Source: a virus (taxonomy: Duplodnaviria > Caudoviricetes). Taken from it: a stretch of 64,000 nucleotides of DNA. Positions within the stretch are counted from its first letter, which is position 1. Each line of letters starts with the position of its first letter. Position numbers and translations under genes: made by a program. Below are positions 2,331 to 58,763 of the stretch, one piece after another. The notes beneath the pieces were generated by a model that did not search any database, was not told the origin of the DNA, and saw only the letters and a list, made by a program, of their open reading frames with translations. The stretch lies in IMG/VR virus record IMGVR_UViG_3300031088_000758; one strand, written 5' to 3'.

Positions 2331-2450
2331 AATTCTCCACAATCCAAAAATACATATACAATGTTCAGTTAACACTATTAAATATCGTTTTCAGAAAAAA
2401 GATAACAATATTGATGAAATTAAACAAATATATATTAGTATTGTCGAAAT

Positions 2451-2996
2451 TCATGCTCCCATTAAGAAAAGGCTCAAGCCAAGACCTATAATCATAGGAA
2501 TTGCAAAAACAATGTTTGAACGTTTTTGAAAAGTTTCAAATTCTTCTTCTTTCATCTTCTTTTTTGCTACTGATAGACTAATATATCTTGGATGCCCTAC
2601 ACTCTTAAAAGCCCATGTCTGAAGAGACAAAGCGTAAACAGCAGAAACAAAAATAGTTACTAAGAAAATTAAAATTGACTCTTTCCAGCCTAAATACCAT
2701 GGAGTTAATCCGACAAAAGCCATAATGCTAGAGTAATTCAAATTATTTATTCCAGTTCCTATGAAACCTACTAACAAAATAGTAGCGATAAAACCTACCA
2801 AACCTATGACAATAGTAGGTATCAAATACTCCCCTGGCGCAACTAATTCATGTATTGTTACATTTAAAGCAATCATGACAAAGTATAAGCCTGTGAACTT
2901 GTTTAATGAAAGCTTAGCGATTTTCACAAGTAGCAAAGTCAATAATAAAATAGAACCATGTAGAAAAAATAATTCATCAAAGGGGATATTGGTCAT
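2451..2996 (-). CDS. Polytopic membrane protein, prepilin peptidase (A24)-like but degenerate
   Basis: Several TMs. The C-terminal half (..WYLGWKESILIFLVT..IVFAIPMIIG) follows the A24 layout, but the GxGD motif is absent. Confidence 0.45.
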   Translation of the reverse strand: MTNIPFDELFFLHGSILLLTLLLVKIAKLSLNKFTGLYFVMIALNVTIHELVAPGEYLIPTIVIGLVGFIATILLVGFIGTGINNLNYSSIMAFVGLTPWYLGWKESILIFLVTIFVSAVYALSLQTWAFKSVGHPRYISLSVAKKKMKEEEFETFQKRSNIVFAIPMIIGLGLSLFLMGA

Positions 2997-4438
2997 TGAT
3001 TGTTGCTCCAGTTCTGCAATCTTTCTATCTCATCTTCTTCATCATCTGGATCGTAGTAAGTTCCAATTTTTCCGGCATTCTGAACACGACCATTATCATC
3101 TAGAACTTCAATTGCACTGTTAAAGTTTTCTGAAGTATTATTTACATTTTCAAAAGACAGGCCAGAAAGCTCTTCCTCATCAAATACAAAATCAAGACTA
3201 TCATTTTCAACTGATTCGTTGGATTCAGGTTGCTGCTCATACAGGTTGTTGTTTAAGGTTTCTTCTTCTGGATTGTAAAACTCTTCTGGTTCAAAGCTTG
3301 GCAGAGAAAACTCTGATTCATTATTATTTATTTCATCATAATAATTTGGTTCTGCTTCCAAAGCTGGCTCATTGATGTTTTCAGAAGCATCAACATAAGC
3401 ACTTATAGAATCTGTATACTGGGTTGAATCGCTAAAATCAAAAGCACTTTGCTCAGATTCATCATTAGTGTTTTCAAATTCAAAGTCAGGCTCAGAATCT
3501 TCGTCCTTTAATGCTAATTTACTTTTTAGCTCATATACTTCATCTTCTAAATCTTTGATGTCTCTGTTTTTCAGAGAAAGCTCATCTTGAAGTTTTTCAT
3601 AAGTTTCTCTTTCTTCTGAACTAAGAGTATCATCAACTCCGTTTTGATTATCTAACTGCTCTTCTAATCTTTTAATAATCAACTTTAATTCAAGATTTTC
3701 TTGTTCGTAATCCTCATCATCATTAGTTGGCATAATATTAATTCCATTAGCAATCTCTGATTGGAATTTAATGTTACTAACATCAACTTGTAATCTATCT
3801 ACTACTGTGGCAAGTTTAGCTACATGTTCATTTCGAAGTCTGAGAAGTTCAACATACTTTTTAACAGTTACTTCTACTCTTGAAACAAAAGTATCCACTT
3901 CACCCATTTCGTAACCCTGCGGAACTTGAATGTCAAAGCCTACTTCTTCCAGATCTTCAGGAAGGAATATATCATTGTCAATTTCAAAAGTTGCTGGAAT
4001 ATTTAAAATTTCAAGAACATCCTGGATTTTTCCTTCATCGGGAACGGGAACGGGAACCGATTCATACTCTTTCATTTTCTTCTTATGTTTGAGTGTCATG
4101 TTTCTCATGAAGCTTTTTGTGCCATCTTCATCTTCAAGCTCAAAAGCTGAGGATTCATCACTAGCAGGTATTTCTGTGGATTCCTCTTCAACGAAAACTT
4201 CTTCTTCAAAAACAGGTTCTTCTTCTACTGCTTTTGGGCGTTCTACAATCCTATTTTTAACAGGCTTTTTCTTTAGAGCAGTATTTTGGACTCTTTTTAC
4301 TGGACTCTTTTTTTGTTTTTCAGGTCGTTGTTTTTCTTCAGGTTCATCTTTGACAGCATCCATAACACGAACAGTCTCTTCACCTATACCTTTTAATCTT
4401 TCTTGTAATTGGCTTTTTGCTTTGTCAAGAATACCCAT
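2993..4438 (-). CDS. DivIVA-domain coiled-coil protein with acidic tail
   Basis: LPEDLEEVGFDIQVPQGYEMGEVDTFVSRV matches the DivIVA pattern (TPEDI..F...RGY...EVD.FL.RV) and is followed by coiled coil. Confidence 0.65.
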   Translation of the reverse strand: MGILDKAKSQLQERLKGIGEETVRVMDAVKDEPEEKQRPEKQKKSPVKRVQNTALKKKPVKNRIVERPKAVEEEPVFEEEVFVEEESTEIPASDESSAFELEDEDGTKSFMRNMTLKHKKKMKEYESVPVPVPDEGKIQDVLEILNIPATFEIDNDIFLPEDLEEVGFDIQVPQGYEMGEVDTFVSRVEVTVKKYVELLRLRNEHVAKLATVVDRLQVDVSNIKFQSEIANGINIMPTNDDEDYEQENLELKLIIKRLEEQLDNQNGVDDTLSSEERETYEKLQDELSLKNRDIKDLEDEVYELKSKLALKDEDSEPDFEFENTNDESEQSAFDFSDSTQYTDSISAYVDASENINEPALEAEPNYYDEINNNESEFSLPSFEPEEFYNPEEETLNNNLYEQQPESNESVENDSLDFVFDEEELSGLSFENVNNTSENFNSAIEVLDDNGRVQNAGKIGTYYDPDDEEDEIERLQNWSNNQ

Positions 4439-4517
4439 TTTTGTTCCTTTGCCACATAATAAAATACTTAAAATTGTTCAATAAATATACATATATAAAT
4501 ATCAGCGCATATCTATT

Positions 4518-12764: not shown

Positions 12765-12912
12765 CTACAACTTCTCCAAAGTAATACCATATTGATTCAA
12801 GATTCATATGTTCTTTTATCTTTTATTTTCTAAAAATTTTTAATATTTTCCACATTAAATCATCAATATGAATATCTACTACGCTTCTTTAAATGTATTG
12901 AAAAAATAATTA

Positions 12913-13467
12913 TTATTTTTCAGTGTTATCTCTGTCGTTTATTGCATATAAGACCGCTTTGCATGTATCTGGTCTATTACCGCAAAATCTACAATCGTAT
13001 CCATACTTGCGAGACTTCTGAACATAATGATTTTCATAAACTTTAACTTTTCGAAAGCCGAGACAGAACAACAAATCTTCGCTTCCAATAAGAGGAACAC
13101 CTGGTTCACCATCTCTATCGTCAATACCAGGTGTTTTTAACATTAATTCTACTCTGTCTACTCCGTATGCTGACATTTTTCGTAAAACACCAAATGTTAA
13201 TAATGTTCCGAAACCTTCTTTTCGATAAGGAGTAGCTACACAAACTGCATCAACTATTCCCGTAACATATGTTCTGCCATTTCCTAATCTTGTGTTTTCA
13301 AAATGGTATAAAGCAAAACCAATAAAAATTCCATCAGAAATTTTAATCATTAGATGGTAAGTGTGAGAATAGCTGAACAAAGATTTAAGTACACCAAGAC
13401 CTAGTGCATCATTGGCAATATGTTTAATCTCCAAAGGGAGTGAAGCATAAGTTAATTTGGAGCTCAT
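12913..13467 (-). CDS. GNAT-family acetyltransferase with C-terminal Cys cluster
   Basis: Motif A AVCVATPYRKEGFGTLL, LGF motif, and CRFCGNRPDTC. Confidence 0.75.
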   Translation of the reverse strand: MSSKLTYASLPLEIKHIANDALGLGVLKSLFSYSHTYHLMIKISDGIFIGFALYHFENTRLGNGRTYVTGIVDAVCVATPYRKEGFGTLLTFGVLRKMSAYGVDRVELMLKTPGIDDRDGEPGVPLIGSEDLLFCLGFRKVKVYENHYVQKSRKYGYDCRFCGNRPDTCKAVLYAINDRDNTEK

Positions 13468-13569
13468 TAAATCCTCTTTCTTAGTTAAAAACTACAAGCA
13501 TAATTATAATATCATTTATACAACTGTATTTCTAAGCAAGATAAAAAGAAAACGCACACTTTTAGAGTC

Positions 13570-14059: not shown

Positions 14060-14530
14060 TCAGCTAGAATATGAGCCAACACCATAAAATACGGCTGTTC
14101 TTGCCCATGTTTTAATTTTTGATTGAATAAAATCCGCAAAATGAGACAGTTCTATGGATTCTTCATTCTTTTCTTGATCCAGTTCCCACCCATCACGTGT
14201 GTAAAAAAGTCTAGCACTTGGCAATTTTACATCTTCAGGTGCGGGAAGAGTTATCTCAATACCTCTTTTGTGTGAGTTAGCTCGAATAGTGAGCTGATCT
14301 GAAAAATCCCAATTATTTTTAGCATGATCCGAAGTTTTCATTCTTACTTGCTCTTTGGCATAATTAAAAATAGTCTCTTTTTGTTTGTAATTAATATAAA
14401 CTCCCCATTTTTTGCTTGATTTTTCTAATTCTTTTTCCATCTCATCTGATAGAATCTCAGCAAAATTTTCGGGTAGATTTATATGTATAATCATCTTAGT
14501 ATCAGTTCTCACAGTATTTATGCCTCTCAT
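14060..14530 (-). CDS. Hypothetical protein
   Basis: Co-oriented 156 aa ORF, no recognised motif. Confidence 0.55.
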   Translation of the reverse strand: MRGINTVRTDTKMIIHINLPENFAEILSDEMEKELEKSSKKWGVYINYKQKETIFNYAKEQVRMKTSDHAKNNWDFSDQLTIRANSHKRGIEITLPAPEDVKLPSARLFYTRDGWELDQEKNEESIELSHFADFIQSKIKTWARTAVFYGVGSYSS

Positions 14531-14570
14531 TTTATTAATGTTAAGAAATTACAATAATATCTTATCAATA

Positions 14571-14621: not shown

Positions 14622-14921
14622 TCATTCAGATTCTGCTTCTCCAGCAACAACATCTCTGAAGTGCCTGAAAATACGAACTTTTACAGCATTACGCTCAGGA
14701 ACAGTAATTTCTTCACCAGAAATAGGTGAGATTGCTTTACGCTCTGAACGAACAACAGGTGTGAATGCTACGAATCCGCTAATCTTCACTTCTACTTTGC
14801 CTACAACTGACTCTTCAACAGTCTCTTGGAACGCTGTTAAGAAACGATCAGTTGCCGCTTTGCTCTCGCCTGTTTTTTCTGCAATTTTTGCTACTAACTC
14901 GGGTCTATTCATAACTGACAT
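14622..14921 (-). CDS. hup: HU-family DNA-binding protein
   Basis: MNRPELVAKIAEKTGESKA..VKISGFVAF..RSERKAISPISGEEITVPER is a canonical HU pattern. Confidence 0.88.
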   Translation of the reverse strand: MSVMNRPELVAKIAEKTGESKAATDRFLTAFQETVEESVVGKVEVKISGFVAFTPVVRSERKAISPISGEEITVPERNAVKVRIFRHFRDVVAGEAESE

Positions 14922-15117
14922 ACTTTATCTCCAATCTAATTTAACTTACATTTACTCTAAAAATAGTCCGATAAAATCCTGACTTTTTATTAATTTTAAT
15001 ATCAGAACAATCTTTTTAAGAAAAATATCTAAAAAATAATCTAACTATTTGAAGCCTATATTATTATAACATTTTATTAATGAAAAACACAGAATAAGTT
15101 GAGCATTCTGTAATTTA

Positions 15118-15417
15118 TTATTTTCTGTCTAAGAAACTTTCTACATTCAAATTATTTTCTTCATCCTCGTAGAACAAAGATGAAGCTTCGCCTTCTTCTA
15201 GTACTTCTGTTGGTTCTTCTTCAACTTCAGAAGTATCTAGCCCTAACTCCGACAAAGAAGGAAGAATTTCGCTTTTTTGTTCATCACGAGAAGCTTTTAT
15301 CTTTAGAGCAAGGATAATAAGCAGAAAAACTGCCAACAATCCAATTACTCCAGTAAAACCATAAATGATTAGTTGACGTTCTTGAATCGTCATAGCGTTC
15401 AATAGTAAATTGATCAT
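15118..15417 (-). CDS. Small membrane-anchored acidic protein
   Basis: N-terminal TM. 4-nt overlap with the upstream gene. Confidence 0.6.
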   Translation of the reverse strand: MINLLLNAMTIQERQLIIYGFTGVIGLLAVFLLIILALKIKASRDEQKSEILPSLSELGLDTSEVEEEPTEVLEEGEASSLFYEDEENNLNVESFLDRK

Positions 15418-16517
15418 CTTTTTGCTATCCTTTTTCCTTCAAATAATGAAATGTATCTAGTTGGCTTAATTATTTTATTGTGTGACTCAATGTTTTTTAT
15501 TGTTTCATATATATCGAAACTGCCTGATGTTGAACCTTCGTAGTTCTTTAAAAACTCATAAAATGGACCATTAACATCTCGCATTAGATCTTTCCACTTA
15601 GCCGAAATTTGCTTGTATTCAGTGTTCTCCAAGCCTTCTATTATAGCGTTTATTGCTTCGGATATATTGTTCATTTTTAAATCAGATAACAAAACTGCTA
15701 TTGCTTCGGGTGTAAAATTATAAGCAGAAACAAAAGTTCCAATCAAAGTCTCTTCAAAAATAGGAGTGCTTGTCTCTGAAAGTTTGATTTCAGCACTATA
15801 ATCTTCTAATGGGTCCAGTAGATTAGTATGGTTAAGGTTCTGTTCAAAGTTTTCTTGTTCTTCAATAATACTGATAGTCATGTTTTGATTAACCGCATAA
15901 GGCTTATCTTCTTTTTCAAGTTTTCCGTTCATAGTCTTTAAATCGGCTTTACCTGAAATAAAGAAATCAAGAACTTCTTCATTTGTAGCATAACGACCAA
16001 TTGATTCGGAAAGTTTTTTACGCACAGCGGAAATTTTTTTGTATCTTTGAAAGCGCGAAGGAGCAATCCCAAATGGTGCTTCTAGAACATTCAATTCTTT
16101 TTTCGCATAAGTAACTATCCATTGGAACAAATAATTAGTAGAAGACTTGTTCAACTTATCTACGTCAAAATGACGGAGACCTTTAATCATTCCGTTTATA
16201 CCAGCATAGTATAGTATGTCAAATAAGTCCTCTCTACCATTCAAATGAGAACCTTTTATTATCTTATTTAATTCTCTTGTAATAAGAGGCCCTGCTAAGG
16301 AAGAAATTTTTTCTACTGCTAAATCTTTTAATCGTGCTTCAGTTTCCAGAAGATTTTTCTCAGCAGGTGATAAGTTTTCTGGCTCTTCTAAAAGTCTTTC
16401 AGCAGCTTCATCCCCACGTTGAAAGAAAGGAACATAATAGCGCAAAGCTTCTACTGTGATTCTGTCATTCGTATTCTTTCGAATGATCTTTGTAGGATTG
16501 ACTAAAGTTTCACTCAT
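15414..16517 (-). CDS. Divergent sigma-70-family factor (regions 2-3)
   Basis: AGINGMIKGLRHFDVDK..TNYLFQWI (region 2) and RKKLSESIGRYATNEEV (region 3). Confidence 0.65.
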   Translation of the reverse strand: MSETLVNPTKIIRKNTNDRITVEALRYYVPFFQRGDEAAERLLEEPENLSPAEKNLLETEARLKDLAVEKISSLAGPLITRELNKIIKGSHLNGREDLFDILYYAGINGMIKGLRHFDVDKLNKSSTNYLFQWIVTYAKKELNVLEAPFGIAPSRFQRYKKISAVRKKLSESIGRYATNEEVLDFFISGKADLKTMNGKLEKEDKPYAVNQNMTISIIEEQENFEQNLNHTNLLDPLEDYSAEIKLSETSTPIFEETLIGTFVSAYNFTPEAIAVLLSDLKMNNISEAINAIIEGLENTEYKQISAKWKDLMRDVNGPFYEFLKNYEGSTSGSFDIYETIKNIESHNKIIKPTRYISLFEGKRIAKR

Positions 16518-18895: not shown

Positions 18896-18964
18896 GATAA
18901 TCAATCTCCTATCAAGATTAAACTAAGATTATTTATACATATACTAATATCTTTTAACTACATT

Positions 18965-22905: not shown

Positions 22906-24189
22906 TCACTCTACGCCAAAATTTGCGCCTAATTCTTGAATGAAAACTTCTGAAACTGTATCTAACTGAGCCATATTAATTTCAGCAACATCAATCTGAG
23001 ACAGAATACTGAACGCATCTTCATATAAACCTGTTGAACATGCAGTTTCAACAACTGCTCGACTTATTTTATGTGCCAATGCTATATTTGTTGACGTAGA
23101 TAATTCTTCAACTGTCAGCTCTGGTGCTTTTTCATCGCTGTTTTCATCCCATGTCAAACTTGTAGGCTTGCGAGACTTGCTCCATACTTTATGTTTTTCT
23201 TCCAAATCGTTGAAATGATACTGGTCCATCTCCATAGCCTGAGCTAATTCAATGTTCGTAAAGTTTTTTTCATCTCCATGCTTTTCTTTTAGTCTCTCCA
23301 CAGCTTTTGAACGTTGGCGCTGGAATTGACTTAAATCTTTGCCCAAGTGTGCAGGTGGAAGGTCATAAGGCCAACGTTTTAGAACAGAATTTAAATAACC
23401 ACTGAAAGGAACCGCTGTTGATTCATCAAATTTTTCAATAGCTGCTAGAACCCACAGAGTAATTTGTGATTCTTGATCTTCTGGATCAGGCAAGAATATT
23501 TGAATAGTTTCCATCTCTTTTTTCACTAATGTTCTAGCGAAAGATTTATAGAACATCACTAAATCATTAGCAAACTGATCACTAAAGTCTACTATTTCTC
23601 GTCTTTTAGCTTCAGCCCTTGAGTAAGTTTTCCTATTTAACCCTTTTAGCATGTCTTTGTATTCGTCTTCTTGTTCAAGGGTTTTAAGAGTATCTTCAAT
23701 GATTTTTTTGACAGTAGCTGCATGTAGGCAGTAAGCTTTGTATCTTCCAGGTTCGAACTCTCGGATTTTTGCTATTCCTCGTAAAGCTTCGCTTACTCTA
23801 GTGGCTATTTTACTATTAGCAGAAAAAGATACAATTCCTATTTCACGAAGTGGAGCATCCATGAATCCTTCGGCTTCTGTCATATCATCCCAAATTCGAG
23901 GGGGAAAGATAGAATCTATTAGTTGGACACCAATTTCTAGATTATGATCTTTATACCATTTTTGAATAGATTCATGTGGGAAACGATACGATTTAGCTCC
24001 TGTTTCGGATTGGATTAAAGAACCATCAGCTAAATGTTTTTCAATCCAATCATTAATCTCTTCTTCTGAAACTTTAGCTATTTTTCGCCATTTCGTTAAA
24101 GAATACCACATTCCATCTGAAACTACTGCACCAATACGAAAGTCTACAGGTTGGTGTTTTAACGTTGTCTTAGTAAAAAGTGCGCTCAT
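22906..24189 (-). CDS. Sigma-70-like (FliA/WhiG/SigF-type) domain fused to N-terminal excisionase-like HTH
   Basis: VLAAIEKFDESTAVPFSGYL (region 2) and FTNIELAQAMEM (region 3). N-terminal WYSLTKWRKIAKVSEEEINDWI..SYRFPHESIQKW. Confidence 0.6.
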   Translation of the reverse strand: MSALFTKTTLKHQPVDFRIGAVVSDGMWYSLTKWRKIAKVSEEEINDWIEKHLADGSLIQSETGAKSYRFPHESIQKWYKDHNLEIGVQLIDSIFPPRIWDDMTEAEGFMDAPLREIGIVSFSANSKIATRVSEALRGIAKIREFEPGRYKAYCLHAATVKKIIEDTLKTLEQEDEYKDMLKGLNRKTYSRAEAKRREIVDFSDQFANDLVMFYKSFARTLVKKEMETIQIFLPDPEDQESQITLWVLAAIEKFDESTAVPFSGYLNSVLKRWPYDLPPAHLGKDLSQFQRQRSKAVERLKEKHGDEKNFTNIELAQAMEMDQYHFNDLEEKHKVWSKSRKPTSLTWDENSDEKAPELTVEELSTSTNIALAHKISRAVVETACSTGLYEDAFSILSQIDVAEINMAQLDTVSEVFIQELGANFGVE

Positions 24190-24569: not shown

Positions 24570-24636
24570 ATAGGCTCCGTCTATTCATTGTTAATTCTTA
24601 GTGGTCTAAACAAATTATAACAATAAAAATATAAAA

Positions 24637-24693: not shown

Positions 24694-25593
24694 TCAAGAA
24701 GATATAAAATCTTCAAAACTTAAATCAAGCTCTTTCATGTCTCTATTTATCTCTGATAATGCTAAAGTTAATATTCGTTTATACTTAGAAGCTGAAAGGT
24801 TATACTTTTCTTTGACTTTCTTAGGAGTGGTAGGTTCATATCCTGGAATGTTGTCCATAGAAAATTGTGAGAGAACTACTTCTCTTTCAATGTCTTTCAT
24901 TTCGTTTAATTTATCTACTAATATTTGGAAAGTTGCGTCCATAACAACTACTGACTCTGCTGAATCAGCTGTATCATCAAGAACAAGTTCAATTAGTTCT
25001 TTATTAGATTCTTCATCTACTGTTCGGTTTAAGCTGGCTGGTATAGAAGCTGCTCCATTGATGAAGAACATGTCATCACGAGATAGTTTAAGCTCTTCCA
25101 TGATTCTTTCGTCAATGTCAAGCTTGTTCATGCCTTCTTCTTTGTACTGATTGCGAAGTCTTGAGATTTTTGTATAATCAGTTACTCGGTTTTCAGGAAG
25201 TTTTACTAATCGACCAGTTTTATTTGTCCATCGTGTAATACTTTGGAAAATCCAATAAGTTGCGACGGTGGAAAGTTTGTTGCCACGTTCAGGTGCGTAT
25301 CTCATAATGGCTGTTACTAGACCTGCCATTCCTTCTTGGACTAAATCTTCCATAGCTGGTGCACTAGGGTATTTAGACTTAAAATTACGCGCTATGTTCC
25401 ACACTAAGCCTGTGTTAGACTCTACTAGTTTTGCTACTGCTTCTTCGCCATGAAAAATTTGTTCTTTGTAGCTTCTTAATTCTCTTTTTGTAAGACCAGG
25501 TTCTTTAATTTGTTCTTTTGCTTTGACCATAGATTGAACAATTGAACCTAAACGAAGTTCTTCTTCTTTTGACAAATGTTGCGCTTTACTCAT
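24694..25593 (-). CDS. RNA polymerase sigma-70 factor, RpoD/SigB-like
   Basis: LSKEEELRL (1.2), LVESNTGLV, EDLVQEGMAGL..RYAPERGNKLSTVATYWIFQSITR (region 2), PASLN. Region 4 is divergent. Confidence 0.9.
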   Translation of the reverse strand: MSKAQHLSKEEELRLGSIVQSMVKAKEQIKEPGLTKRELRSYKEQIFHGEEAVAKLVESNTGLVWNIARNFKSKYPSAPAMEDLVQEGMAGLVTAIMRYAPERGNKLSTVATYWIFQSITRWTNKTGRLVKLPENRVTDYTKISRLRNQYKEEGMNKLDIDERIMEELKLSRDDMFFINGAASIPASLNRTVDEESNKELIELVLDDTADSAESVVVMDATFQILVDKLNEMKDIEREVVLSQFSMDNIPGYEPTTPKKVKEKYNLSASKYKRILTLALSEINRDMKELDLSFEDFISS

Positions 25594-25798: not shown

Positions 25799-25828
25799 AT
25801 TATATTATTAATACTTTTAAAAAGTCAA
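25799..25828 (-). promoter_or_regulatory. Housekeeping-sigma-type promoter upstream of the element sigma factor
   Basis: Minus strand TTGACT-18 nt-TATAAT. Confidence 0.55.
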
Positions 25829-29155: not shown

Positions 29156-29276
29156 AATAAATCTTCCGCATTTAGATGTGTTATTTACATAAAAATATAT
29201 TAATAATATGCTTTATACTAATATCTGTTTATAGTGTACTTATGGGAATTTTATTAGAAATACCATGAGTTTTTAA

Positions 29277-30989: not shown

Positions 30990-31064
30990 TCATCAAATCC
31001 TCTAAAGAAATTAGTTCATTAAATTTGTTCTACTTTTAATAAACATTACACTTACTAATATCAC

Positions 31065-35667: not shown

Positions 35668-35705
35668 AGACCTGATTGATACAATAATTAATATCAATCA
35701 GGTCT
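35668..35705 (-). terminator. Inverted repeat after PhoH gene
   Basis: AGACCTGATTGATA / TATCAATCAGGTCT. Confidence 0.65.
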
Positions 35706-35724
35706 CTCTTATAAGAAGACAATA

Positions 35725-42400: not shown

Positions 42401-42575
42401 CTACTCCGTGGATAGTAATTATTTTTTTTCTGATCAGATATTGATATCCACTTTCAGCGACGTGTAAACCACTAAAAGTAAATTCATTTATAATATCAGA
42501 ATGCTTTTCTAAAACAATTAAAGTAACATTCCTTAACTAATATCATTTCTATCTAATTTTAAATATTTTTATATA

Positions 42576-44402: not shown

Positions 44403-44466
44403 ATATACTCCCGAATCATCGAATAAAAACTACATTAATAATATCTGACAATTATTTATTTAAGAA

Positions 44467-48636: not shown

Positions 48637-48739
48637 GTCAGTCCATTCTCTATAATTGTTCCTAAATAACGTTGTTTTTTCTTAATATCTACTAAACCGC
48701 ATATCCAACGTTTTATTGTTCACTTAAAATATCAGCCTT

Positions 48740-52174: not shown

Positions 52175-53368
52175 TTACGCCACTCTTCTTGCTTTTATGT
52201 CATTAAACCAAGGTTCTACTGTTTTAGTAATATACTCTTCCATATTGACACCAGAGCCAGGAACTACCTCATCATCTTTGTGTAGTCTATATTCAAAAAC
52301 TTCGTTATCATTAATTAATGCTCTTACATCTGCGTATTCAAGACCTGTTGTGTTTAAATAATACAAAGTTTGCGCTCTGTAGTTATTCGGCACACCATTT
52401 TTCCAAATATCCGAATTGCTCCCAGTTTTAATTTCTAATATTCCGTTGGGGACTCCATCTTCTCTATCTGAAATTAGACCATCAAAATTAACTTGTTGCC
52501 ACTCGCGTTCAGGGTGAGAAAATTGCCCTTCCACAGAGTACACTTTTCTTTCGGGGTGCTCTTCAGCGTAGTTCTCTCTGATTCTATCTTCCCATACAGT
52601 CCCTCTATAAAGAGCTCCTTTACGCTGTGCAAATTTAAGATCGTTTTCTTTTTTGAAATCTTCATCTGTGAATGCATTAGTCTTTGTTTTAACTATTTTA
52701 GAATACCCAGCTTTTGTGTAACCAGCTGGTTCTTCTTCGAAATGTATAGAAGCCAAAGTTCCAACATCCGATCCACCAATTGTGTTGTATCTTGCTTCAT
52801 ACCATTCTCTTGAATGAGCAGGGTGTGATTCAGAATTTACAGCAATCCCTATGTTCTTTTCGGTCCAAGAATCTACTTTTGAGTTTAAAAATCTACTATC
52901 ATTAGTTGCTTCTACTAGCTCAGCAGTTAGATTTCGATAATCGTCATAATCTCTTTTATGAGACTTAACTGTTTTAGGGTCTATGAGCTTTCTTTCTTCA
53001 ACTCTTTTAATTGCTTCATTTCTTTGTCTCGTCTTTAAAATTCTATCTTCAATTATTTTATTAACTTGCTTATAGTTAGCAGCACTTTCATTAACAAAAT
53101 CTACTATCTCACTAACACTCTTTTTCTCAAGCTCTTTAATAAATGAATTTCTCACAGAAGTCTTTTTATTTCTAGCAACTTTTGTTGTTGTCAAAGTTCC
53201 ATACTTTTCTGATAATTGATCTTGCAAAGAGTTTTCTGCTTCTTCCTTGGTTTCATAGTGTGCTACTGTATCCCCTGAGATAATAGAAAACTTACAATTC
53301 TCTGGAGTCTGTGCCGAACAGGCACCTATCTTGCCTGTATCAGGATTAATATGAAACTTAACAGCCAT
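52175..53368 (-). CDS. YqaJ/lambda-exonuclease-family nuclease with N-terminal His/Cys module
   Basis: WYEARYNTIGGSDV..GTVWE..NFDG..ILEIKT..YRAQTLYY. Confidence 0.85.
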   Translation of the reverse strand: MAVKFHINPDTGKIGACSAQTPENCKFSIISGDTVAHYETKEEAENSLQDQLSEKYGTLTTTKVARNKKTSVRNSFIKELEKKSVSEIVDFVNESAANYKQVNKIIEDRILKTRQRNEAIKRVEERKLIDPKTVKSHKRDYDDYRNLTAELVEATNDSRFLNSKVDSWTEKNIGIAVNSESHPAHSREWYEARYNTIGGSDVGTLASIHFEEEPAGYTKAGYSKIVKTKTNAFTDEDFKKENDLKFAQRKGALYRGTVWEDRIRENYAEEHPERKVYSVEGQFSHPEREWQQVNFDGLISDREDGVPNGILEIKTGSNSDIWKNGVPNNYRAQTLYYLNTTGLEYADVRALINDNEVFEYRLHKDDEVVPGSGVNMEEYITKTVEPWFNDIKARRVA

Positions 53369-53468
53369 TAGATTACCAACCTTATCATGTTCTAAAATAC
53401 TTATAGTCGCTTTTCTAAAACATTTTATTGAATAAATTGATTTACTAAAAAATATTTTTGATACAATA

Positions 53469-53517
53469 AAATAGAAAATACCCCAACAAGTTTTAAATGT
53501 TGGGGTATTTTCTATTT
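53469..53517 (-). terminator. 20-bp inverted repeat terminator after WYL gene
   Basis: AAATAGAAAATACCCCAACA / TGTTGGGGTATTTTCTATTT. Confidence 0.75.
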
Positions 53518-53524
53518 AAGAACG

Positions 53525-53737
53525 TCAAAGAATTTCAATCTCTTCCATGCTGTCATAGGCAAACCTTCGATAGTCATCCTTATCCAAGTCAATCGCAACT
53601 AAAACATTTCCAGAAATAACTTCCACTGGACGAACATGTCGCTTTGAAACTTTGTTCTTATTCAGATTTGAATATGTAAAAACCAAATCCGAATTGTTTT
53701 GAATAGCAGCTTCAACTACTTTTTGAACATTCTTCAT
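53525..53737 (-). CDS. Stand-alone WYL-domain protein
   Basis: AIQNNSDLVFTY..SKRHVRPVEV..LVAIDLDKDDYRRFAYDSM. Confidence 0.75.
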   Translation of the reverse strand: MKNVQKVVEAAIQNNSDLVFTYSNLNKNKVSKRHVRPVEVISGNVLVAIDLDKDDYRRFAYDSMEEIEIL

Positions 53738-53738
53738 A

Positions 53739-56333
53739 TCATTTCACCTTATCTTCTTCTAAAAATTCGCCTACAATTTCGTCAATTCTTTTGCCCAAAG
53801 CTTCTTTAAGGTAATCCTGCTTAGAAAGTAAAAATGCTTTTACCATTGACCTAAGTTCATGAATCTCCTTGCTATCTCCGTATCGTGAATAACCCGGATC
53901 TTTAATAGCATGAATCAATTCAAGCTTCTTAGAAAACTCGTTTTGAACTTCCACAGAGAGACTTGAAAAGACACGAGAAGGATTAACTAGCTCTGTAGTT
54001 GTAGTATACTCCATACTCAATACATTTGTCAAGACACTAGAAATTTGATCCATATTTCTAGAACCTGCAGGAACGTTGCTAGAAATATTATCCATAACTT
54101 TTAGCAATCCTTCAACAGGATTATCATTGTTATTATTTTTGATAAATGAATTAACGTATTTTTCGTAATGTGTCTGATGAACATTATTCAAATAATAAAT
54201 AGCTAAACGTTCTTCCTCTGGAATCCTTGAGATTTTATCTTGAACAATATCCCGACTAAACACTCTTCCTTCAAGCCTGCTCTGAGCAGATTTGCTACGA
54301 GCAGTGTATTTAGGCCCAAAAGCATACAACGTATTATCCGTCACATAGTCAAAGAAATCTTTTTTAGGATCCGCAACAACAACAATGGACCTGCCAAACA
54401 AAGAATCGCCTTCTTCATGGTATACACCATTAATAATAGAGGGAATTTCGTATAAGGCCCTTCCCTGAACAGGAATGAACAAAGCATTCTGCTCAACATA
54501 TTCATCTACTTCTATGGCTGAATATGTATTAGCATAGCCACCATCAAGAGAATAAAGCTCATCTAAACTATTTACTGCTTCTATCACTTTTCCAGCAACA
54601 GTGAACGACTCAGATCCACTCTCACTTAGTGAATTTTCGGCAATCTTTGATTTCCTGACTTCTTTAACATGATCACTGAAAGTTTCAAAATCATAAAACT
54701 TAACAGTATTCAAATCAGTAAGTCTAAAATCAATAACCTTTTGTAAATCACTGCTTATAGTATCCTTAACGAAAATAATAGATGAAACCGAGTCTAAATT
54801 GTTTCTATTCCTCATAGCACTAGACACTTTTTTATCATTATCTACGCCGCTAATCACAACTACATTGCTGAGACGATACTTCATGAGATCTTTCTTAAGC
54901 TTTTCAATACTTGACAAGAAATGAATACTCTCCGAAGAAGAATTGTGTAACTGTTTCTCTAATTTCTCATTAGCAGATGAAATTTTTAGATTTGAATGAA
55001 CAGTGAGTTTGTCATTAGCTTTTGAATCCTCATTAAGACCTAACAAGTCGAACTTTTTGCGATCATAAGTCAAAGGAAGCACAGCTCCTAAAAGAATGCC
55101 TTCTGATTTGAAGCTGACATTTTCCATGAAAGGATTATAGCTATTTTCTGTATTTAAATCTTTCAAATCTACTGAATAACTAAACTCTTGAAAACGGTTG
55201 TTAGGGAACTCAAAAGACACCTTATTATCAACCAAGTTGTAGTTAATTTTCTCGCTGAATTCATATGCTTCATAATTATTGGTTAAAGTTTTATAATACT
55301 GAACAAGATTTTTGAACATGTAATCACTCTTGAACAGTTGACCTTTAACAAGAGAGTCAAAATTCTCTAATCTATCATCTTTCATGATCTGATCACGTGA
55401 AGAGGAAAACTCAACAATACCTGGTTTTAGCTCTACAATCAAATCATGTTCTTCAGATCCATATGAATTATAAGAATTGAAACCTTTAGGGTCATTATAC
55501 AAAAACCCAGAAAGCACATATCCTACTTTTAGTTCAGCTTTTTGATAATCATAACTACTGATAGCTTTCAAAACATTGGAAAGATTTTTCTTATTGAACC
55601 ACACTTGTCCCATGATATTGAACTCTTGTTCAATAAGAATTTCATCAAAACTGACAAAATCATCATTATGCGAATATTCTACTTCATCAATAATGATTGG
55701 CTCATCCATGGTAAAAGCGTATGCTTTGTACATGTCAATAGTTTCTTTGAACCTATCAAAATCATATTGAGTGTTGCGCACAGGAACTTTCACTAATGTC
55801 CCTGGCTGTTTGTTAGTCAGTTCTACATTCAAAATATTAGTCTCAGGTCCAGTGTCAAGACGCGAAATAACGTTTTCTGAGGTTTCACCATCACGTGTAC
55901 TTGTGAAGTAGAATTCGTTGCAATAAGCCAGAGGAGCTTTAAAACCAAGTCCATAAGCACCAACTTGATTAAAAGAGGTTTCTTTAGTAGAAGCACCATA
56001 TTCAGCAACAACTTCTTTAATGATCTTCTTAGACATTCCCATCCCATTATCCTCAACAGAGAACACAGGGTCAAAAGCATTAGGAGTGCTAATTTTAACA
56101 GGCTGAGGGTTTTTACCATTAGCCCGCGCTTCAGCAGTAGTATCCAAAGCGTTTGAAACAATTTCCCTCACAGTTGCTTGGATAGGATCATTATAAAGAT
56201 CTGTCAGACGATCCATAATTTTGCCAACAGCTGAAGCATTCAAGCTCATTACGATTCGCTCACTTTTGCTAACATCAGGGAACAAGTCTACAACATTAGA
56301 CTTACCTTTATTTCCACCTTTTGAAAGAGCCAT
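53739..56333 (-). CDS. rIIA-like GHKL (HSP90-type) ATPase
   Basis: LYNDPIQATVREIVSNALD..EDNGMGMS..YGASTK..GAYGLGFKAPLAY is the rIIA-type N-terminal signature. Confidence 0.8.
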   Translation of the reverse strand: MALSKGGNKGKSNVVDLFPDVSKSERIVMSLNASAVGKIMDRLTDLYNDPIQATVREIVSNALDTTAEARANGKNPQPVKISTPNAFDPVFSVEDNGMGMSKKIIKEVVAEYGASTKETSFNQVGAYGLGFKAPLAYCNEFYFTSTRDGETSENVISRLDTGPETNILNVELTNKQPGTLVKVPVRNTQYDFDRFKETIDMYKAYAFTMDEPIIIDEVEYSHNDDFVSFDEILIEQEFNIMGQVWFNKKNLSNVLKAISSYDYQKAELKVGYVLSGFLYNDPKGFNSYNSYGSEEHDLIVELKPGIVEFSSSRDQIMKDDRLENFDSLVKGQLFKSDYMFKNLVQYYKTLTNNYEAYEFSEKINYNLVDNKVSFEFPNNRFQEFSYSVDLKDLNTENSYNPFMENVSFKSEGILLGAVLPLTYDRKKFDLLGLNEDSKANDKLTVHSNLKISSANEKLEKQLHNSSSESIHFLSSIEKLKKDLMKYRLSNVVVISGVDNDKKVSSAMRNRNNLDSVSSIIFVKDTISSDLQKVIDFRLTDLNTVKFYDFETFSDHVKEVRKSKIAENSLSESGSESFTVAGKVIEAVNSLDELYSLDGGYANTYSAIEVDEYVEQNALFIPVQGRALYEIPSIINGVYHEEGDSLFGRSIVVVADPKKDFFDYVTDNTLYAFGPKYTARSKSAQSRLEGRVFSRDIVQDKISRIPEEERLAIYYLNNVHQTHYEKYVNSFIKNNNNDNPVEGLLKVMDNISSNVPAGSRNMDQISSVLTNVLSMEYTTTTELVNPSRVFSSLSVEVQNEFSKKLELIHAIKDPGYSRYGDSKEIHELRSMVKAFLLSKQDYLKEALGKRIDEIVGEFLEEDKVK

Positions 56334-56375
56334 ACTACTAACCTCACTTAACTATACTGAAATGTTCTAAAATAC

Positions 56376-56405
56376 AGTATAACATGAGATTATAATCAAA
56401 GTCAA
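56376..56405 (-). promoter_or_regulatory. Housekeeping-sigma-type promoter of the rIIA-like/WYL operon
   Basis: Minus strand TTGACT-18 nt-TATACT with extended TGn. Confidence 0.65.
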
Positions 56406-56431
56406 GCCTTTAATCCAATAATACGAAGTGT

Positions 56432-58513
56432 TTAAGAAGAATTATTCAACACCCATTCAGAATTAAAGCTCTCTTCGTTATCAACCGAATCGTTATCCTC
56501 AATTAAATCAAAAAGCATATCAAAACCGTCCTCTTTAAGGGAATTTTGGTTCTTTTTGTATGTAGGCTCAACAATCTCTCCAGTTAAAGTGTTGATTTCA
56601 GAACCATCTTCTTCATAAATATAAGTAGGTTCATCTTTGTCAAAATTCGAGTCAGTGTGAGTAGAAGAATCAGTTGATTCCTTGTTTTTATTGTAACCTA
56701 AAGCTTCCCTTTCAGAGACAAGATATCTTTCAGCAGCACCAGCTCTATAATCTTCTAAAACAAGACTTTCGGGAAGATTATTTGAAATAGTGTCCAACCA
56801 GGAAGTAAAATCAGATAATGGTTCTACTCTTTGATTAGTAAACACAGTCTCGAATTGTTTTTTCACAAAGTTAAAGTATATAGGATGAGGGTAATCGTAA
56901 TATTCTTCACTGTTGTACTTTCCCCAAGCTAATCTCAATGCTTTGCTTAAGAATGTATGAGAATATTTTTCAGGAACAGAATAGGTTGCCGCTAAACCTG
57001 TCCTCTGTTTCTGCTCAATACGAATAACCTCATTTTCTCTGAGTATTCTCATTGCTTGACTCACACGGGAACTACTGATGCCTAATCTTTCAGAGATGTC
57101 AGAATGAGCAAGTAGAATTCTAATGGCACCAACATTTGACAAAGGCTGAATATAGTAATTAACAATGTTCATCGCATCTTTATACTGTTGAGACAGCTTT
57201 TTCTTCCTGGACTCCTTGATAAGATCTTCACTAATTTTTGAAATATCCAATACTCTTGGTTTGGCGAATTTTGAGTTATTAGCTCTTTGTATTTTCTTTT
57301 TCTCTGCTAGCTTTTTTTTGTTGTATTCACGATAGTCCTCAGAAGTGAAAGAAGACTTCTGAAATTCTTCTTTTCCGTTAGCAAGTTTCTGTTGCTTTAA
57401 GTCTTTGAGCCTCTTTTTACCTTCGTAGCAGTAGTTATTGTGATATCTTTTCAATAATTTAAAATGATTTATATCGTTGATTAAATGACGAAAACCTAAT
57501 GATTCTTTTCGGTAAGAATCTTTATCTACACCTAATTCAATACAAGCCATAGCAATAGAGTAATTATCATAACAGCAGTGGAGAGAAGCCTTGATAACAG
57601 CCCTAGCTTGATGGAAAGTATCTATGTCTTTATTAGCTAGATTCTTTCTTAAGGAATTTATAATGTCAGGAGATGGAATAGCATGAATAAGATCAACAGT
57701 TTCATTTTCTCCAACTGTCATTTCATTCAGTATTTCTTTTTCAACAAAAGAAGAATCATATGAGAGGGGTTTTTTCACAGTGTTGATAGCATCTTTAACG
57801 TCGATTTTGTTGGAAGTTTTATTTGTTGATGAATTACGAGAGTCAGACTTAGATTGCTTGTAGAAAGAAACTATACGGTTTAGGTTCTCCATAGAAGAGT
57901 TATCCACTGTAAGTATTTCGTATGATGGATTCTTGAAGCCAAAGGATTCATTAGCAAGGAAATATCTTTTATATTGTGTTTTCTGTTCAGGATTAACAAA
58001 ATTTCCTGGGCCTACAACATATCCATTTGAAAAACCACTTCGTATGTCAGCATCTACTCGGACATCATATCCAGAAGTGTATGTAAAAGCATCGTTATAA
58101 GAGCGTAGAGAGCCTTTGGGTATTAGTTCAGCAATTTGTTCATTGCTGTATTCTGAGGGGAATTTAAGGTAAATATGGACACCACCAGAAGGAGTAATGA
58201 CAGCCAAAGATTCTCTCAGGTTAACCTTAAAAAAATCACTGAAGAAATCGATCTGCTGGTCCAGATCCCAATAACCTTCACGATGTTGATCAAGATCAAG
58301 TATGAACAGTTTATCTTGCGGAATGACTCCATAGCTGTGATCTTTTGGAATTCTTACATATCTGTTTCTCTTGCCAGGCTTGAAGCTTCCTTTGGGGGTT
58401 TTGCTGTTTAGTTTTAGTTTAGCATACTGTGCGCTTTTCCCTAGTGCTTTTTGAAATTTCTTCAGTATCTCTTGCTCAGGAGTGAGGTCAGTGGATGAGT
58501 AGTTCGAAGGCAC
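56432..58513 (-). CDS. Bifunctional primase-polymerase (AEP) domain plus C-terminal wHTH; candidate replication initiator
   Basis: FILDLDQH, ITPSGGVHIYL and DIRSG..GYVVGPG. HTH LAHSDISERLGISSSRVSQAMRIL. Confidence 0.75.
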   Translation of the reverse strand: MPSNYSSTDLTPEQEILKKFQKALGKSAQYAKLKLNSKTPKGSFKPGKRNRYVRIPKDHSYGVIPQDKLFILDLDQHREGYWDLDQQIDFFSDFFKVNLRESLAVITPSGGVHIYLKFPSEYSNEQIAELIPKGSLRSYNDAFTYTSGYDVRVDADIRSGFSNGYVVGPGNFVNPEQKTQYKRYFLANESFGFKNPSYEILTVDNSSMENLNRIVSFYKQSKSDSRNSSTNKTSNKIDVKDAINTVKKPLSYDSSFVEKEILNEMTVGENETVDLIHAIPSPDIINSLRKNLANKDIDTFHQARAVIKASLHCCYDNYSIAMACIELGVDKDSYRKESLGFRHLINDINHFKLLKRYHNNYCYEGKKRLKDLKQQKLANGKEEFQKSSFTSEDYREYNKKKLAEKKKIQRANNSKFAKPRVLDISKISEDLIKESRKKKLSQQYKDAMNIVNYYIQPLSNVGAIRILLAHSDISERLGISSSRVSQAMRILRENEVIRIEQKQRTGLAATYSVPEKYSHTFLSKALRLAWGKYNSEEYYDYPHPIYFNFVKKQFETVFTNQRVEPLSDFTSWLDTISNNLPESLVLEDYRAGAAERYLVSEREALGYNKNKESTDSSTHTDSNFDKDEPTYIYEEDGSEINTLTGEIVEPTYKKNQNSLKEDGFDMLFDLIEDNDSVDNEESFNSEWVLNNSS

Positions 58514-58763
58514 TGTATCCCCCTTTCTGAGTAGTAGCTGATTAGTAGGTTCGAGAGCTTAGTTTATCAATAATTTTTTACATATTAAGTTAGATCACAG
58601 CTTGTGATGAGGACTAGGTTCAAGCCGTCTTGATTCAATATCTTTTCTAAAATGTAAAAAGCTTACCCGACAAGCTTATTTACATACCATGTAAGATTCA
58701 AACCAGACTTTTAGGGCAAAACGGACATTAACCAGTCCATAGCAAGGTGGCTGAGTGTTTAAT

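Follow-up and report, generated by a model that had tools for sequence, protein, structure and literature searches.

The systems closest to the one described here are the late promoters of the phages SPO1 and T4 and the promoters of SigN, a sigma factor of the plasmid pBS32. The late promoters of phage T4, TATAAATA, are read by gp55 together with gp33 and the gp45 clamp. Promoters of the sigma-28/SigD/WhiG type have the form TAAA-N15-GCCGATAT, in which GCCGATAT is the -10 element. In the Bacillus phage SPO1, late promoters described as CGTTAGA-N17-19-GATATT are read by gp34 with gp33 (PMC3601020). SigN (ZpdN), encoded by the Bacillus subtilis plasmid pBS32, recognizes -10 elements of the AGATAWAA type on that plasmid, and its promoters also need a TTTACGTTT -35 element (PMC6751061).

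The window, that is, the whole stretch of 64,000 nt analyzed here, belongs to a metagenomic contig of 727,572 bp. In its intergenic DNA (5,235 nt), GATATT was found 24 times in the sense and twice in the antisense orientation, with 4.7 copies expected (order-1 model, P 3e-10), and it is the highest-ranked hexamer (z 8.8). This agrees with the strand specificity claimed in the original prediction, which had named 17 coordinates; a minus-strand GATATT is present at all 17. The two intergenic copies of opposite orientation were verified at 21343 and 42437, and the spacing of 25-140 nt to the next start codon was reproduced. Sense sites that had not been predicted lie at 15024, 27706, 35690, 42539, 48728 and 61012, and two more were found in the final codons of the preceding gene (26423 and 47032). 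A copy at 26981 lies within a probable small unannotated gene.

In the coding DNA of the window (58.8 kb), 22 sense and 12 antisense copies were detected, and the density of sense copies is about 12 times greater in intergenic than in coding DNA. Over the whole window, the count is not enriched (60 vs 57.5 expected). The signal consists in the placement and strand of the copies. None of the 18 one-mismatch variants was enriched in the window intergenic DNA, including TATATT, AATATT and CATATT and likewise GATATA, GATATC and GATATG. Judged from the sequence, the initial G of the hexamer is specifically required, and so is the final T following GATAT.

GATATT is a real signal that heads most transcription units. 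The sites are as follows (L numbers denote relatives).

2381..2386, minus strand: GATATT 50 nt before the likely ATG (2330) of gene 1233-2375, function not assigned; 5 nt from the GTG start of the ORF, the likely true ATG having a GGAG ribosome-binding site
4498..4503, minus strand: GATATT 59 nt before gene 2993-4438 (481 aa), function not assigned
12871..12876, minus strand: GATATT 106 nt before the giant gene 8481-12764 (1427 aa)
13508..13513, minus strand: GATATT 40 nt before the GNAT-like gene 12913-13467
14556..14561, minus strand: GATATT 25 nt before gene 14060-14530, after an inverted repeat (hairpin)
14998..15029, minus strand: tandem GATATT (14998 and 15024), 76 and 102 nt before the HU gene 14622-14921
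18946..18951, minus strand: GATATT 41 nt before the VirB11-like ATPase operon (ATPase 16514-18904, sigma-like gene 15414-16517, gene 15118-15417); kept in L019 and L020
25734..25739, minus strand: GATATT 140 nt before the RpoD-like sigma gene; the orthologous gene is also preceded by a GATATT in L019 and in the 53%-GC relative L021
26423..26428, minus strand: GATATT in the 3' end of gene 26387-26794, 55 nt before gene 25930-26367; kept in L019 and L020
27706..27727, minus strand: tandem GATATT (27706 and 27722), 25 and 41 nt before gene 27063-27680
29220..29225, minus strand: GATATT 64 nt before gene 28313-29155
31057..31062, minus strand: GATATT 67 nt before the lysozyme-domain gene 29277-30989, after an inverted repeat (hairpin)
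35690..35695, minus strand: GATATT 87 nt before the giant TrbL-domain gene 31151-35602, inside a terminator-like hairpin (19-bp stem) 3' of a PhoH/PIN gene; arrangement common to L016 and L017
38586..38591, minus strand: GATATT 41 nt before the TadE-like gene 37966-38544; kept in L016, L017 and L018
41897..41902, minus strand: GATATT 38 nt before gene 40422-41858 (GmrSD-like and NikA-like genes come next), past a hairpin with a 17-bp stem
42492..42544, minus strand: tandem GATATT (42492 and 42539), 91 and 138 nt before gene 42002-42400
44440..44445, minus strand: GATATT 37 nt before gene 42576-44402, an orthologue of which matches Pfam TpcC; same junction in all three of L016-L018
47032..47037, minus strand: GATATT in the final codons of gene 47020-48636, 45 nt before the coupling-protein gene 44467-46986
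48684..48733, minus strand: tandem GATATT (48684 and 48728), 47 and 91 nt before gene 47020-48636
58637..58642, minus strand: GATATT 123 nt before the PrimPol-like gene 56432-58513

The proposed link to transfer genes alone did not hold, as HU, GNAT-like, sigma and PrimPol-like genes are also preceded by GATATT. The motif is not confined to the window either; it is found beyond it and throughout relatives of 345-420 kb. The 10 kb past the window have genes in both orientations, and all 4 intergenic sites there point to the downstream gene, so that the motif flips with gene direction just outside the window. In five syntenic relatives, whose coupling protein or A3 protein is 43-84% identical, 39 sense copies and 1 antisense copy were detected (6.9 expected), often at matching gene junctions.

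Hexamers were also searched with no prior motif in the relatives G002 (whole record) and G003 (first 400 kb of 420 kb). In G002 (345 kb, 42% GC), the most strand-asymmetric upstream hexamer was GATATT (33 sense, 2 antisense), with a peak 20-60 nt before starts; its enrichment over composition there is only about 2-fold, and what stands out is chiefly the strand asymmetry and the depletion elsewhere. The coding DNA of G002 holds 33 copies of GATATT (102 expected) and 26 of its complement (72 expected), each being the most depleted among 60 composition-matched permutations. In G003 (56% GC), GATATT was the most strand-asymmetric upstream hexamer (30 sense vs 4.1 expected) and also the most enriched one (z 12.9); most of its sites lie 27-110 nt upstream of starts. 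In G005, the most distant relative, GCTATT is preferred (20 vs 2.1 expected). The relatives that keep GATATT span 33-56% GC and probably have different hosts. On these comparisons, conservation of the motif extends over an entire lineage of uncultivated giant mobile elements that carry secretion-system genes.

An origin of the motif by chance or from the base composition of AT-rich intergenic DNA would be in keeping with the unenriched whole-window count and with the P of 0.09 under an order-4 background; trained on the same 5 kb, that background absorbs the motif and is therefore hardly informative. The relatives effectively refute this explanation, and we assign it almost no probability: the sense to antisense ratios are 24:2 in the window, 39:1 in the five relatives and 33:2 in G002, no hexamer ranks above GATATT in the 56%-GC relative, and no one-mismatch variant is enriched.

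The predicted absence of a -35 element was borne out in the 24 window sites, in 68 pooled sites (window and relatives) and in 30 sites of the 56%-GC relative. No TTGAC was found within 50 nt upstream of the 68 pooled sites. A pyrimidine-purine step lies 6-7 nt 3' of the hexamer in the window and the five closest relatives; position 11 after the G is T in 38 of the 68 sites, and position 12 is a purine in 54. On the 5' side, C is over-represented two positions before the G (9/24 window sites), and TT ahead of the G is not conserved among the window sites. In the register -12 to -7, the hexamer gives A at -11 and T at -7; GCTATT of G005 lacks that A. With the G at -14, as in SigN promoters, T at -7 is present in 21 of the 68 sites only. 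The conservation and the avoidance inside genes fit a self-sufficient promoter core. Since six bases are short for an autonomous promoter, an unseen co-factor or DNA-context requirement besides the hexamer is likely.

It is unlikely, in our estimate, that the promoter element is read by a host sigma factor, either a primary sigma tolerating G at -12 or one of the sigma-28/SigD type, with the element sigmas serving other promoters. The sigma-28/SigD -10 element has GATAT as its core, and the over-represented C two bases before the G recalls that element; in L021 (53% GC), CG or GC stands before three of the four GATAT copies and CT before the remaining one. However, unlike sigma-28/SigD/WhiG promoters, the element's sites have no CC directly before the G and no TAAA-type -35 at a fixed distance (68 sites), and the motif appears to require T after GATAT. 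Promoters with a -10 element only are normal for the actinobacterial primary sigma, but the required G, with TATATT, AATATT and CATATT unenriched, is unlike any primary-sigma -10 element. Furthermore, TTGACT-N18-TATAAT promoters form a separate class within the same element, and the hexamer is kept over relatives of 33-56% GC, probably with different hosts.

We give even less credence to GATATT as a regulator binding site, whether for an activator that takes over from the -35 contact, as T4 MotA does, for a repressor or for an HU/IHF-family protein of the element. Two HU-family proteins and a protein with a wHTH-like N-terminus are encoded by the element, and TGTA or TATAA-like strings lie 6-10 nt 3' of several window sites; nevertheless, no second element (-10 or IHF TTR arm) was detected at a fixed distance on either side in the 68 sites and the GC-rich relative. 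TATCAA, the complement of TTGATA, resembles the IHF core consensus WATCAA, but the TT concerned is unconserved in the window. Moreover, a non-palindromic 6-bp site is atypical of operators, and the strong avoidance of both orientations in genes fits a signal acting alone.

Just as doubtful is a function in RNA, where GAUAUU, located in a 5' leader or an intercistronic stretch, would serve for processing or be bound by a regulator. The sites are on the sense strand only, 25-140 nt before start codons, so that their transcription is possible, and the copies at 26423 and 47032 lie within final codons of the preceding gene. However, in the coding DNA of G002 the antisense copies are depleted nearly as much as the sense copies, which an RNA signal does not predict; at three loci, a long terminator stem encloses the hexamer, which is identical to a known -10 hexamer. 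Where terminator-like hairpins share a gap with the motif, 18 pairings have the motif past the hairpin, 7 have it within the hairpin and 3 have it ahead of the hairpin. A promoter predicts this mostly 3' position, although an RNA signal also permits it.

The sigma-like genes and the ordinary promoter-like sites of the window are as follows.

24694..25593, minus strand: sigma-70-family gene (299 aa, regions 1.2-4, altered region 4.2)
15414..16517, minus strand: divergent sigma-70-family gene (367 aa, without Pfam match), conserved core gene of the lineage
22906..24189, minus strand: probable sigma-like protein (427 aa) with an N-terminal wHTH/IclR-like module and a sigma 2-3-like C-terminal half
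25799..25828, minus strand: canonical TTGACT-N18-TATAAT promoter-like site ("P1"), host-type, upstream of the RpoD-like sigma gene 24694-25593
24614..24622, minus strand: extended -10-like TGTTATAAT before the operon of 24186-24569 and 22906-24189, in a gap that holds no GATATT

Three element-encoded sigma factors had been proposed. By its matches to Pfam and to PDB SigA (3e-22), gene 24694-25593 certainly belongs to the sigma-70 family. For gene 15414-16517, membership has good support from hhalign (E 2.7e-6) and from 49 Foldseek matches, all sigma A/B chains among the matches listed, and gene 22906-24189 is a weakly supported sigma-like candidate. Three sigma-like gene families are conserved, and each of five relatives has one Pfam-detectable sigma gene. 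An RpoB domain was detected in none of these 5 relatives, whereas 14 of 14 control genomes were positive. Since the RNA polymerase beta gene is absent from the five relatives, the core polymerase must be that of the host. Two of the sigma-like proteins appear full length, region 4 included, which alone does not explain the -35 independence. SPO1 gp34 has no detectable relative among the three; tblastn with all three gave no match to SPO1-type phage, and with two of them no match in a plasmid collection.

Two promoter classes seem to lie side by side in the window. The ordinary class, identified by its TTGACT/TATAAT-type motifs, would serve a few genes, namely the RpoD-like sigma gene, the operon of the third sigma-like gene and replication genes. 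This arrangement suggests a cascade.

We consider it moderately probable that GATATT is a hexamer-only, -35-independent promoter read by an element-encoded sigma on the host core polymerase. The -10-only private promoter originally proposed stands as to its strand specificity, link to genes, lack of a -35 and element sigma genes, but not as to its confinement to transfer genes. We infer the promoter role, the reading factor and the cascade alike. The hexamer would be the core, and apparently the sole conserved element, of a promoter class heading most transcription units of a giant extrachromosomal element with type IV secretion (T4SS) genes. This element, without an RNA polymerase core of its own, would supply sigma-70-family subunits that steer the host core polymerase to GATATT, and transcription would start about 6-8 nt 3' of the hexamer, at the pyrimidine-purine step. 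The cascade would run from the host sigma to the element sigma(s) and then to the GATATT regulon, which would take in the VirB11-like ATPase operon and hence the second sigma gene. If this is true, the element runs a private promoter class much as large phages run their late genes.

As in T4 late transcription, a single short, strict -10-type box without a -35 heads many transcription units; however, the box sequence differs, and the sigma-like proteins of the element look full length instead of consisting of region 2 only. The -10 hexamer described for SPO1 is identical to GATATT (PMC3601020), and SPO1 redirects the host core polymerase to private promoters by a sigma-type factor of its own, as the present element would do. 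In contrast to SPO1, a 130-kb myovirus, elements of the present kind measure 0.2-0.8 Mb and have T4SS genes, and CGTTAGA or any other fixed-distance -35 is absent. SigN resembles the present case as the sigma of an extrachromosomal element, with a regulon confined to the element (a feature of SigN) and a GATA core in the -10 (PMC6751061). SigN needs its TTTACGTTT -35, whereas no -35 is present here, and three sigma paralogues stand against one. The gene for SigN is served by the SigA of the host as well as through a promoter of the SigN class (PMC6751061); similarly, the canonical promoter-like site at 25799-25828 and the GATATT at 25734 both precede the RpoD-like gene.

Every long ORF of the window is encoded on the minus strand. 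Over the whole window, GATATT occurs 60 times against 57.5 copies expected from dinucleotide shuffles, and is thus not over-represented. When the intergenic DNA (5,235 nt) was considered, the gene strand carried 24 copies and the opposite strand 2, and the order-1 expectation for the gene strand was 4.7 (P 3e-10). Thus, the strand specificity described in the original prediction is borne out. GATATT was the most enriched of all hexamers in the intergenic DNA of the window (z 8.8), and it is about 12-fold denser there than in coding DNA. An order-4 background gave P 0.09. This test is uninformative, because the background was trained on the same 5 kb and absorbs the motif. Among the 18 one-mismatch variants, none was enriched in the window. 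Therefore, each of the six positions, including the G, is specifically required.

Every minus-strand copy previously reported was present, and the two reported opposite-strand intergenic copies were located at 21343 and 42437. Additional sense copies were detected at 15024, 27706, 35690, 42539, 48728, and 61012, and two further copies lie within the final codons of upstream genes (26423 and 47032). At site 2381, a GTG start is apparently only 5 nt away; the true start is likely at 2330, an ATG preceded by a GGAG ribosome-binding site, and the motif would then be 50 nt upstream. One of the two antisense intergenic copies lies within the string GGATATCAATATCTGATC at 42428-42447. The string, in which GATATC is accompanied by a near-repeat, is a distinct, partly palindromic feature.

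The genes of the window that were named by Pfam are as follows.

Pfam-based features of the window
Window: two giant TrbL/VirB6-domain proteins, one also with an M23 peptidase domain
16514-18904: VirB11-like (T2SSE) ATPase, with a LAGLIDADG/Hom_end intein inside
Window: TraG/VirD4-type coupling protein, NikA-like, TadE-like, and lysozyme-domain proteins
Window: two HU-family proteins, Rad50-like ATPase, PhoH-PIN protein
Window: DnaG, glutaredoxin, RNase T-like exonuclease, YqaJ-domain protein, PrimPol-like protein
Window: one Pfam-detectable sigma factor

Sense-oriented GATATT stands upstream of genes and operons and tracks the direction of the downstream gene in the window, in the adjoining 10 kb, and in the relatives. 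The motif had been described as belonging to transfer genes. It does precede T4SS-type genes within the window; however, it also precedes HU, GNAT-like, sigma, and PrimPol-like genes, so this limitation was not borne out. In the 10 kb past the window end, both strands carry genes, and the intergenic copies (4/4) each point to the downstream gene, at 38-78 nt from its start. Statements on the whole element draw on these 10 kb and on the relatives. A strand-polar chromosome signal of the Chi or KOPS type was rejected on the grounds that the copies are intergenic and oriented like the genes. Two apparent gaps of the window, 26795-27062 and 53369-53738, are probably small genes below the 80-aa ORF cut-off. 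A 76-79-aa gene occupies the position of the former in relatives, and in the latter a WYL-domain gene of 70 aa is called both on the contig of the window itself (L015) and at a syntenic locus of a relative (L016).

Five syntenic loci of relatives, with a coupling protein or A3 protein that shares 43-84% identity with its counterpart in the window, were analyzed in the same way. In their 9.2 kb of intergenic DNA, 39 copies are sense and 1 is antisense, against 6.9 expected, and no mismatch variant of GATATT was enriched at these loci. Many of the sites are at orthologous junctions. The motif is found before the TpcC-like gene in all of L016, L017, and L018 and before the TadE-like gene. In the window, L019, and L020, it also heads the operon that contains the second sigma gene along with the VirB11-like gene. 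The syntenic relatives range from 33% to 60% GC, and gene order and hexamer are kept despite this strong shift in composition.

For the whole records of two relatives, G002 (345 kb, 42% GC) and G003 (56% GC; first 400 kb of 420 kb), ORFs were cut with a crude caller before upstream hexamers were ranked. In both records, GATATT was the upstream hexamer with the greatest strand asymmetry. In G002, 33 sense and 2 antisense copies lie upstream of genes (28 versus 1 within -100 to -15 of starts); the sites extend across the whole record, with the highest density around the T4SS and sigma core. In G003, GATATT ranked first of all hexamers (z 12.9): 30 sense copies were counted where 4.1 were expected, and most of them stand 27-110 nt from starts.

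Inside genes, the motif is avoided. The coding DNA of G002 contains 33 copies of GATATT against 102 expected and 26 copies of its complement against 72 expected, each being the most depleted of 60 composition-matched permutations. In the coding DNA of the window, depletion is visible for antisense GATATT only (12 versus 22). Restriction-site avoidance was rejected as the sole cause of this depletion, because sense copies upstream of genes are enriched. Avoidance inside genes in both orientations, together with enrichment before genes in one orientation, is the pattern expected of a short signal that acts by itself. We are nearly certain that GATATT is a functional signal.

Position profiles of the 24 window sites, of 68 sites pooled from the window and relatives, and of the 30 G003 sites contained no conserved upstream element; the reported absence of a -35 element was thus confirmed. 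TTGAC does not occur within 50 nt upstream of any of the 68 pooled sites, and TTAGA, TAAA, and TTTAC have no preferred spacing from the hexamer in the same set. The flanks show weak preferences: T or C at the two bases preceding the G in low-GC genomes, and, after the hexamer, A in the window lineage and C or T in G003. Counted from the G, position 11 is T in 38/68 sites and position 12 is a purine in 54/68. In one of two possible registers, with GATATT at -12 to -7, the equivalents of A(-11) and T(-7), the bases flipped out by sigma-70-type factors, are both present, and the T-purine step would be at -1/+1. This preference at positions 11 and 12 is the only indirect sign of transcription that would begin about 6-8 nt downstream of the hexamer. 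Recognition as an IHF-like site was also considered and rejected: no second arm was found, and the window sites do not conserve the TT that precedes the G.

Where a terminator-like hairpin shares the gap with the motif, the motif follows the hairpin in 18 pairings, lies inside it in 7, and precedes it in 3. On the 3′ side of the PhoH-PIN gene, the hexamer is inside a long terminator-like stem in the window (35603-35724), L016 (about 21200-21250), and L017 (about 21250-21300), where it occupies the 5′ arm and loop. This arrangement is kept at the three loci though the stem sequences differ.

Three genes of the window were analyzed as candidate sigma factors.

Candidate sigma genes
24694-25593, minus strand: RpoD-like sigma gene
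15414-16517, minus strand: second sigma gene
22906-24189, minus strand: third sigma-like gene

RpoD-like sigma (24694-25593): The product matches Pfam Sigma70_r2 (1e-11) and, over residues 38-283 (regions 1.2-4), SigA in the PDB (3e-22). Regions 2, 3, and 4 can be aligned with primary or group-2 sigma factors, and the gene encodes a full sigma-70-family protein. The Q and T of region 2.4, which read the T at -12 in primary sigma factors, are retained. ASKYKR stands in place of RERIRQ, which reads the -35 element in primary sigma factors, and this protein has not kept the residues with which a TG motif is read. The last point also bears on an extended -10 reading of the motif (TGnTATTAn). This was rejected, since in addition its would-be T at -7 is found in only 9/24 window sites and, in this alternative register, is not conserved among the pooled sites (21/68).

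Second sigma (15414-16517): No Pfam match was obtained. The family profile aligned with the RpoD-like sigma (hhalign probability 88%, E 2.7e-6), and the AlphaFold model (pLDDT 78) gave 49 Foldseek matches at E < 1e-3; all among the matches listed were sigma A/B chains. The sigma-like proteins could be aligned to sigma A/B over about 320 columns. By the similarity of its profile and of its modelled fold to regions 2-4, the protein is assigned to the sigma-70 family. In our reading of the alignment, T and K occupy the two region 2.4 positions, which we infer would be compatible with a different base at -12.

Third sigma-like protein (22906-24189): The C-terminal half gave weak matches, mostly to sigma factors. 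Its profile matched sigma chains only among PDB sequences, at a weak E of 0.2, Foldseek matches were likewise weak (E 2e-3 to 0.1) and mostly to sigma chains, and the Atlas model matched SigF-family models over residues 148-360. The N-terminal part resembles wHTH/IclR-like modules, and hhalign against the RpoD-like sigma was negative. Thus, of the three element sigma factors originally proposed, the first two are supported, and the third has weak matches only. All three are conserved core genes, and the two divergent ones have >120 clusters each. A tblastn search of the plasmid collection with two of the three proteins gave no match.

The most distant relative, G005 (197,590 bp, 60% GC; loci L049-L058), has a different top upstream hexamer, GCTATT, with 20 copies (2.1 expected), most of them 40-100 nt ahead of starts; GATATT is weaker (8 versus 1.0 expected). 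GCTATT is without the A(-11) equivalent. A homologue of the second sigma was found in G001-G004, the other four IMG/VR relatives, and not in G005, a single and possibly incomplete record. The two observations may reflect co-evolution of sigma and promoter, which is only a hint because of the nature of this record.

The motif was compared with known promoter systems. The late promoter of phage SPO1 is CGTTAGA-N17-19-GATATT (PMC3601020). The -10 hexamer of these gp34/gp33 promoters is identical to the motif here. However, CGTTAGA at N17-19 is absent: TTAGA spacing is scattered among the 68 sites, which rules out a -35 element of this type, and isolated matches occur only at window site 13508 and L021 site 8647. 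When the three sigma-like proteins were searched by tblastn against 50,697 phage records, neither an SPO1-type phage relative nor a gp34-type sigma was among the matches listed (for the RpoD-like sigma, the best 15 of 226 matched records, with 45 Bacillus phages outside those 15). Two of the proteins matched only cyanophage sigma genes or unrelated Enterococcus phage genes. Since neither the SPO1 -35 element nor a gp34 homologue was found, the motif falls outside the SPO1 late promoter class. In its architecture, one strict -10-type box without a -35 element, the motif works like T4 late promoters. Promoters of the T4 late type are read by a gp55-like minimal sigma with gp33 and the clamp as co-activator. 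The closest biology is that of SigN of pBS32, an extrachromosomally encoded sigma whose regulon does not extend beyond its own element. In SigN promoters, the G of AGATAWAA is at -14 from mapped starts (PMC6751061). They combine a GATA-core -10 with a -35 element, whereas the element here is without a -35: the SigN-type -35 TTTACGTTT (consensus in PMC6751061) was not found, and TTTAC has no positional peak.

Host-type promoter-like sites were located by a simple sequence scan, and are listed with the GATATT copy that lies beside one of them.

Host-type promoter-like sites and the adjacent GATATT
25799-25828: TTGACT-N18-TATAAT, 205 nt before the RpoD-like sigma gene (sequence scan)
25734: GATATT, at -140 of the same gene (sequence)
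Before the operon of the third sigma-like gene, where no GATATT is present: TGTTATAAT (sequence scan)
Before the HU gene: TGTTATAAT (sequence scan)
48.7 to 64 kb, replication/recombination block: TTGACT-N18-TATACT and TTGAAA-N17-TACAAT (sequence scan)

The replication/recombination block is otherwise almost without GATATT; a canonical promoter-like site is at 56376-56405. The layout of the two promoter classes suggests a cascade, in which the host sigma would drive the element sigma(s) and these would drive the GATATT regulon. At the sequence level, the pair of sites before the RpoD-like sigma gene may echo sigN, which has a SigA promoter and one of its own class. The 14-mer GTATTTTAGAACAT occurs at 53387-53400 and 56362-56375, where it directly follows the -10-like hexamers of two promoter-like sites of host type; these precede 52175-53368 and 53739-56333. 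It may be an operator or the common leader start of early/replication genes. TTTTAGAA is over-represented in the window (24 versus 11.9 expected), with 17 copies on the gene strand.

We consider it quite probable that GATATT is a promoter core, and we lean slightly towards an element-encoded sigma as the factor that would read it. In the original prediction, the motif was interpreted as a -10-only promoter of transfer genes read by an element sigma. The promoter-like, -35-less, sigma-linked part of this interpretation is the best reading, and its scope is the whole element and lineage instead of the transfer genes. A broader picture is offered tentatively, as one that we think rather doubtful: a lineage of 0.2-0.8 Mb elements with T4SS genes (33-60% GC) would run most of its genes by a -35-less six-base code, with unannotated sigma paralogues in a three-sigma cascade, and the code would have shifted from GATATT to GCTATT in one deep branch with loss or divergence of one paralogue. 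If true, this would be a case of natural sigma-promoter co-evolution and of a phage-late-style programme in control of a conjugation-like machine. If one of the Pfam-invisible sigma families reads GATATT, it would form a new specificity class in the sigma-70 family, and would also show that an autonomous, phage-like programme of transcription can drive conjugation-type machinery. To our knowledge, regulatory annotation is almost entirely absent for the giant extrachromosomal elements that metagenomes have yielded. Here, most transcription units bear one and the same hexamer, which amounts to an operon map and, being kept across very different base compositions, helps to recognise members of the lineage. 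The small sigma set and the short promoter fragments are testable by standard in vitro transcription.

The window belongs to a metagenomic contig of 727,572 bp (ENA ERZ27247443, k141_1824502), and homologues of its core genes are on contigs of up to 0.83 Mb. The IMG/VR relatives measure 197-420 kb, one with direct terminal repeats; G001-G005 are classed as viral by IMG/VR, with CheckV completeness of 100%. In family-model searches, the coupling protein and a Sigma70_r2 gene were each found in 5/5 relatives, Terminase_6N and HK97-type capsid Pfam families in 0/5, and the RNA polymerase beta domain (Rpb2_6) in 0/5, against 14/14 control genomes. Since no beta-subunit domain was found in the relatives, the host polymerase core is needed. 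A small cellular (CPR-type) genome, a possibility raised by relatives on 0.6-0.8 Mb contigs, is unlikely for the same lack of the RpoB domain. The element, plasmid or phage, is thus giant and extrachromosomal, carries T4SS genes, and must depend on the polymerase core of the host. Megablast of 20 kb against plasmid and phage collections gave no match, and the coupling-protein search of genome contigs gave nothing or only unrelated Verrucomicrobiota/Bacteroidota matches. The "Hodor" megaplasmids (about 357 kb, 45-47% GC) are a different group, and their report mentions neither a sigma nor a promoter (PMC12934698). The VirB11-like ATPase with its intein is 796 aa long in the window; the L019 orthologue has 424 aa without the intein, and that of L020 has 683 aa. 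L021 is on a 727,102-bp contig (JGI 3300031417), and L018 and L020 are on a 697,643-bp contig from the same ENA sample as the window. One sample thus contains two or more related elements, each of about 0.7 Mb.
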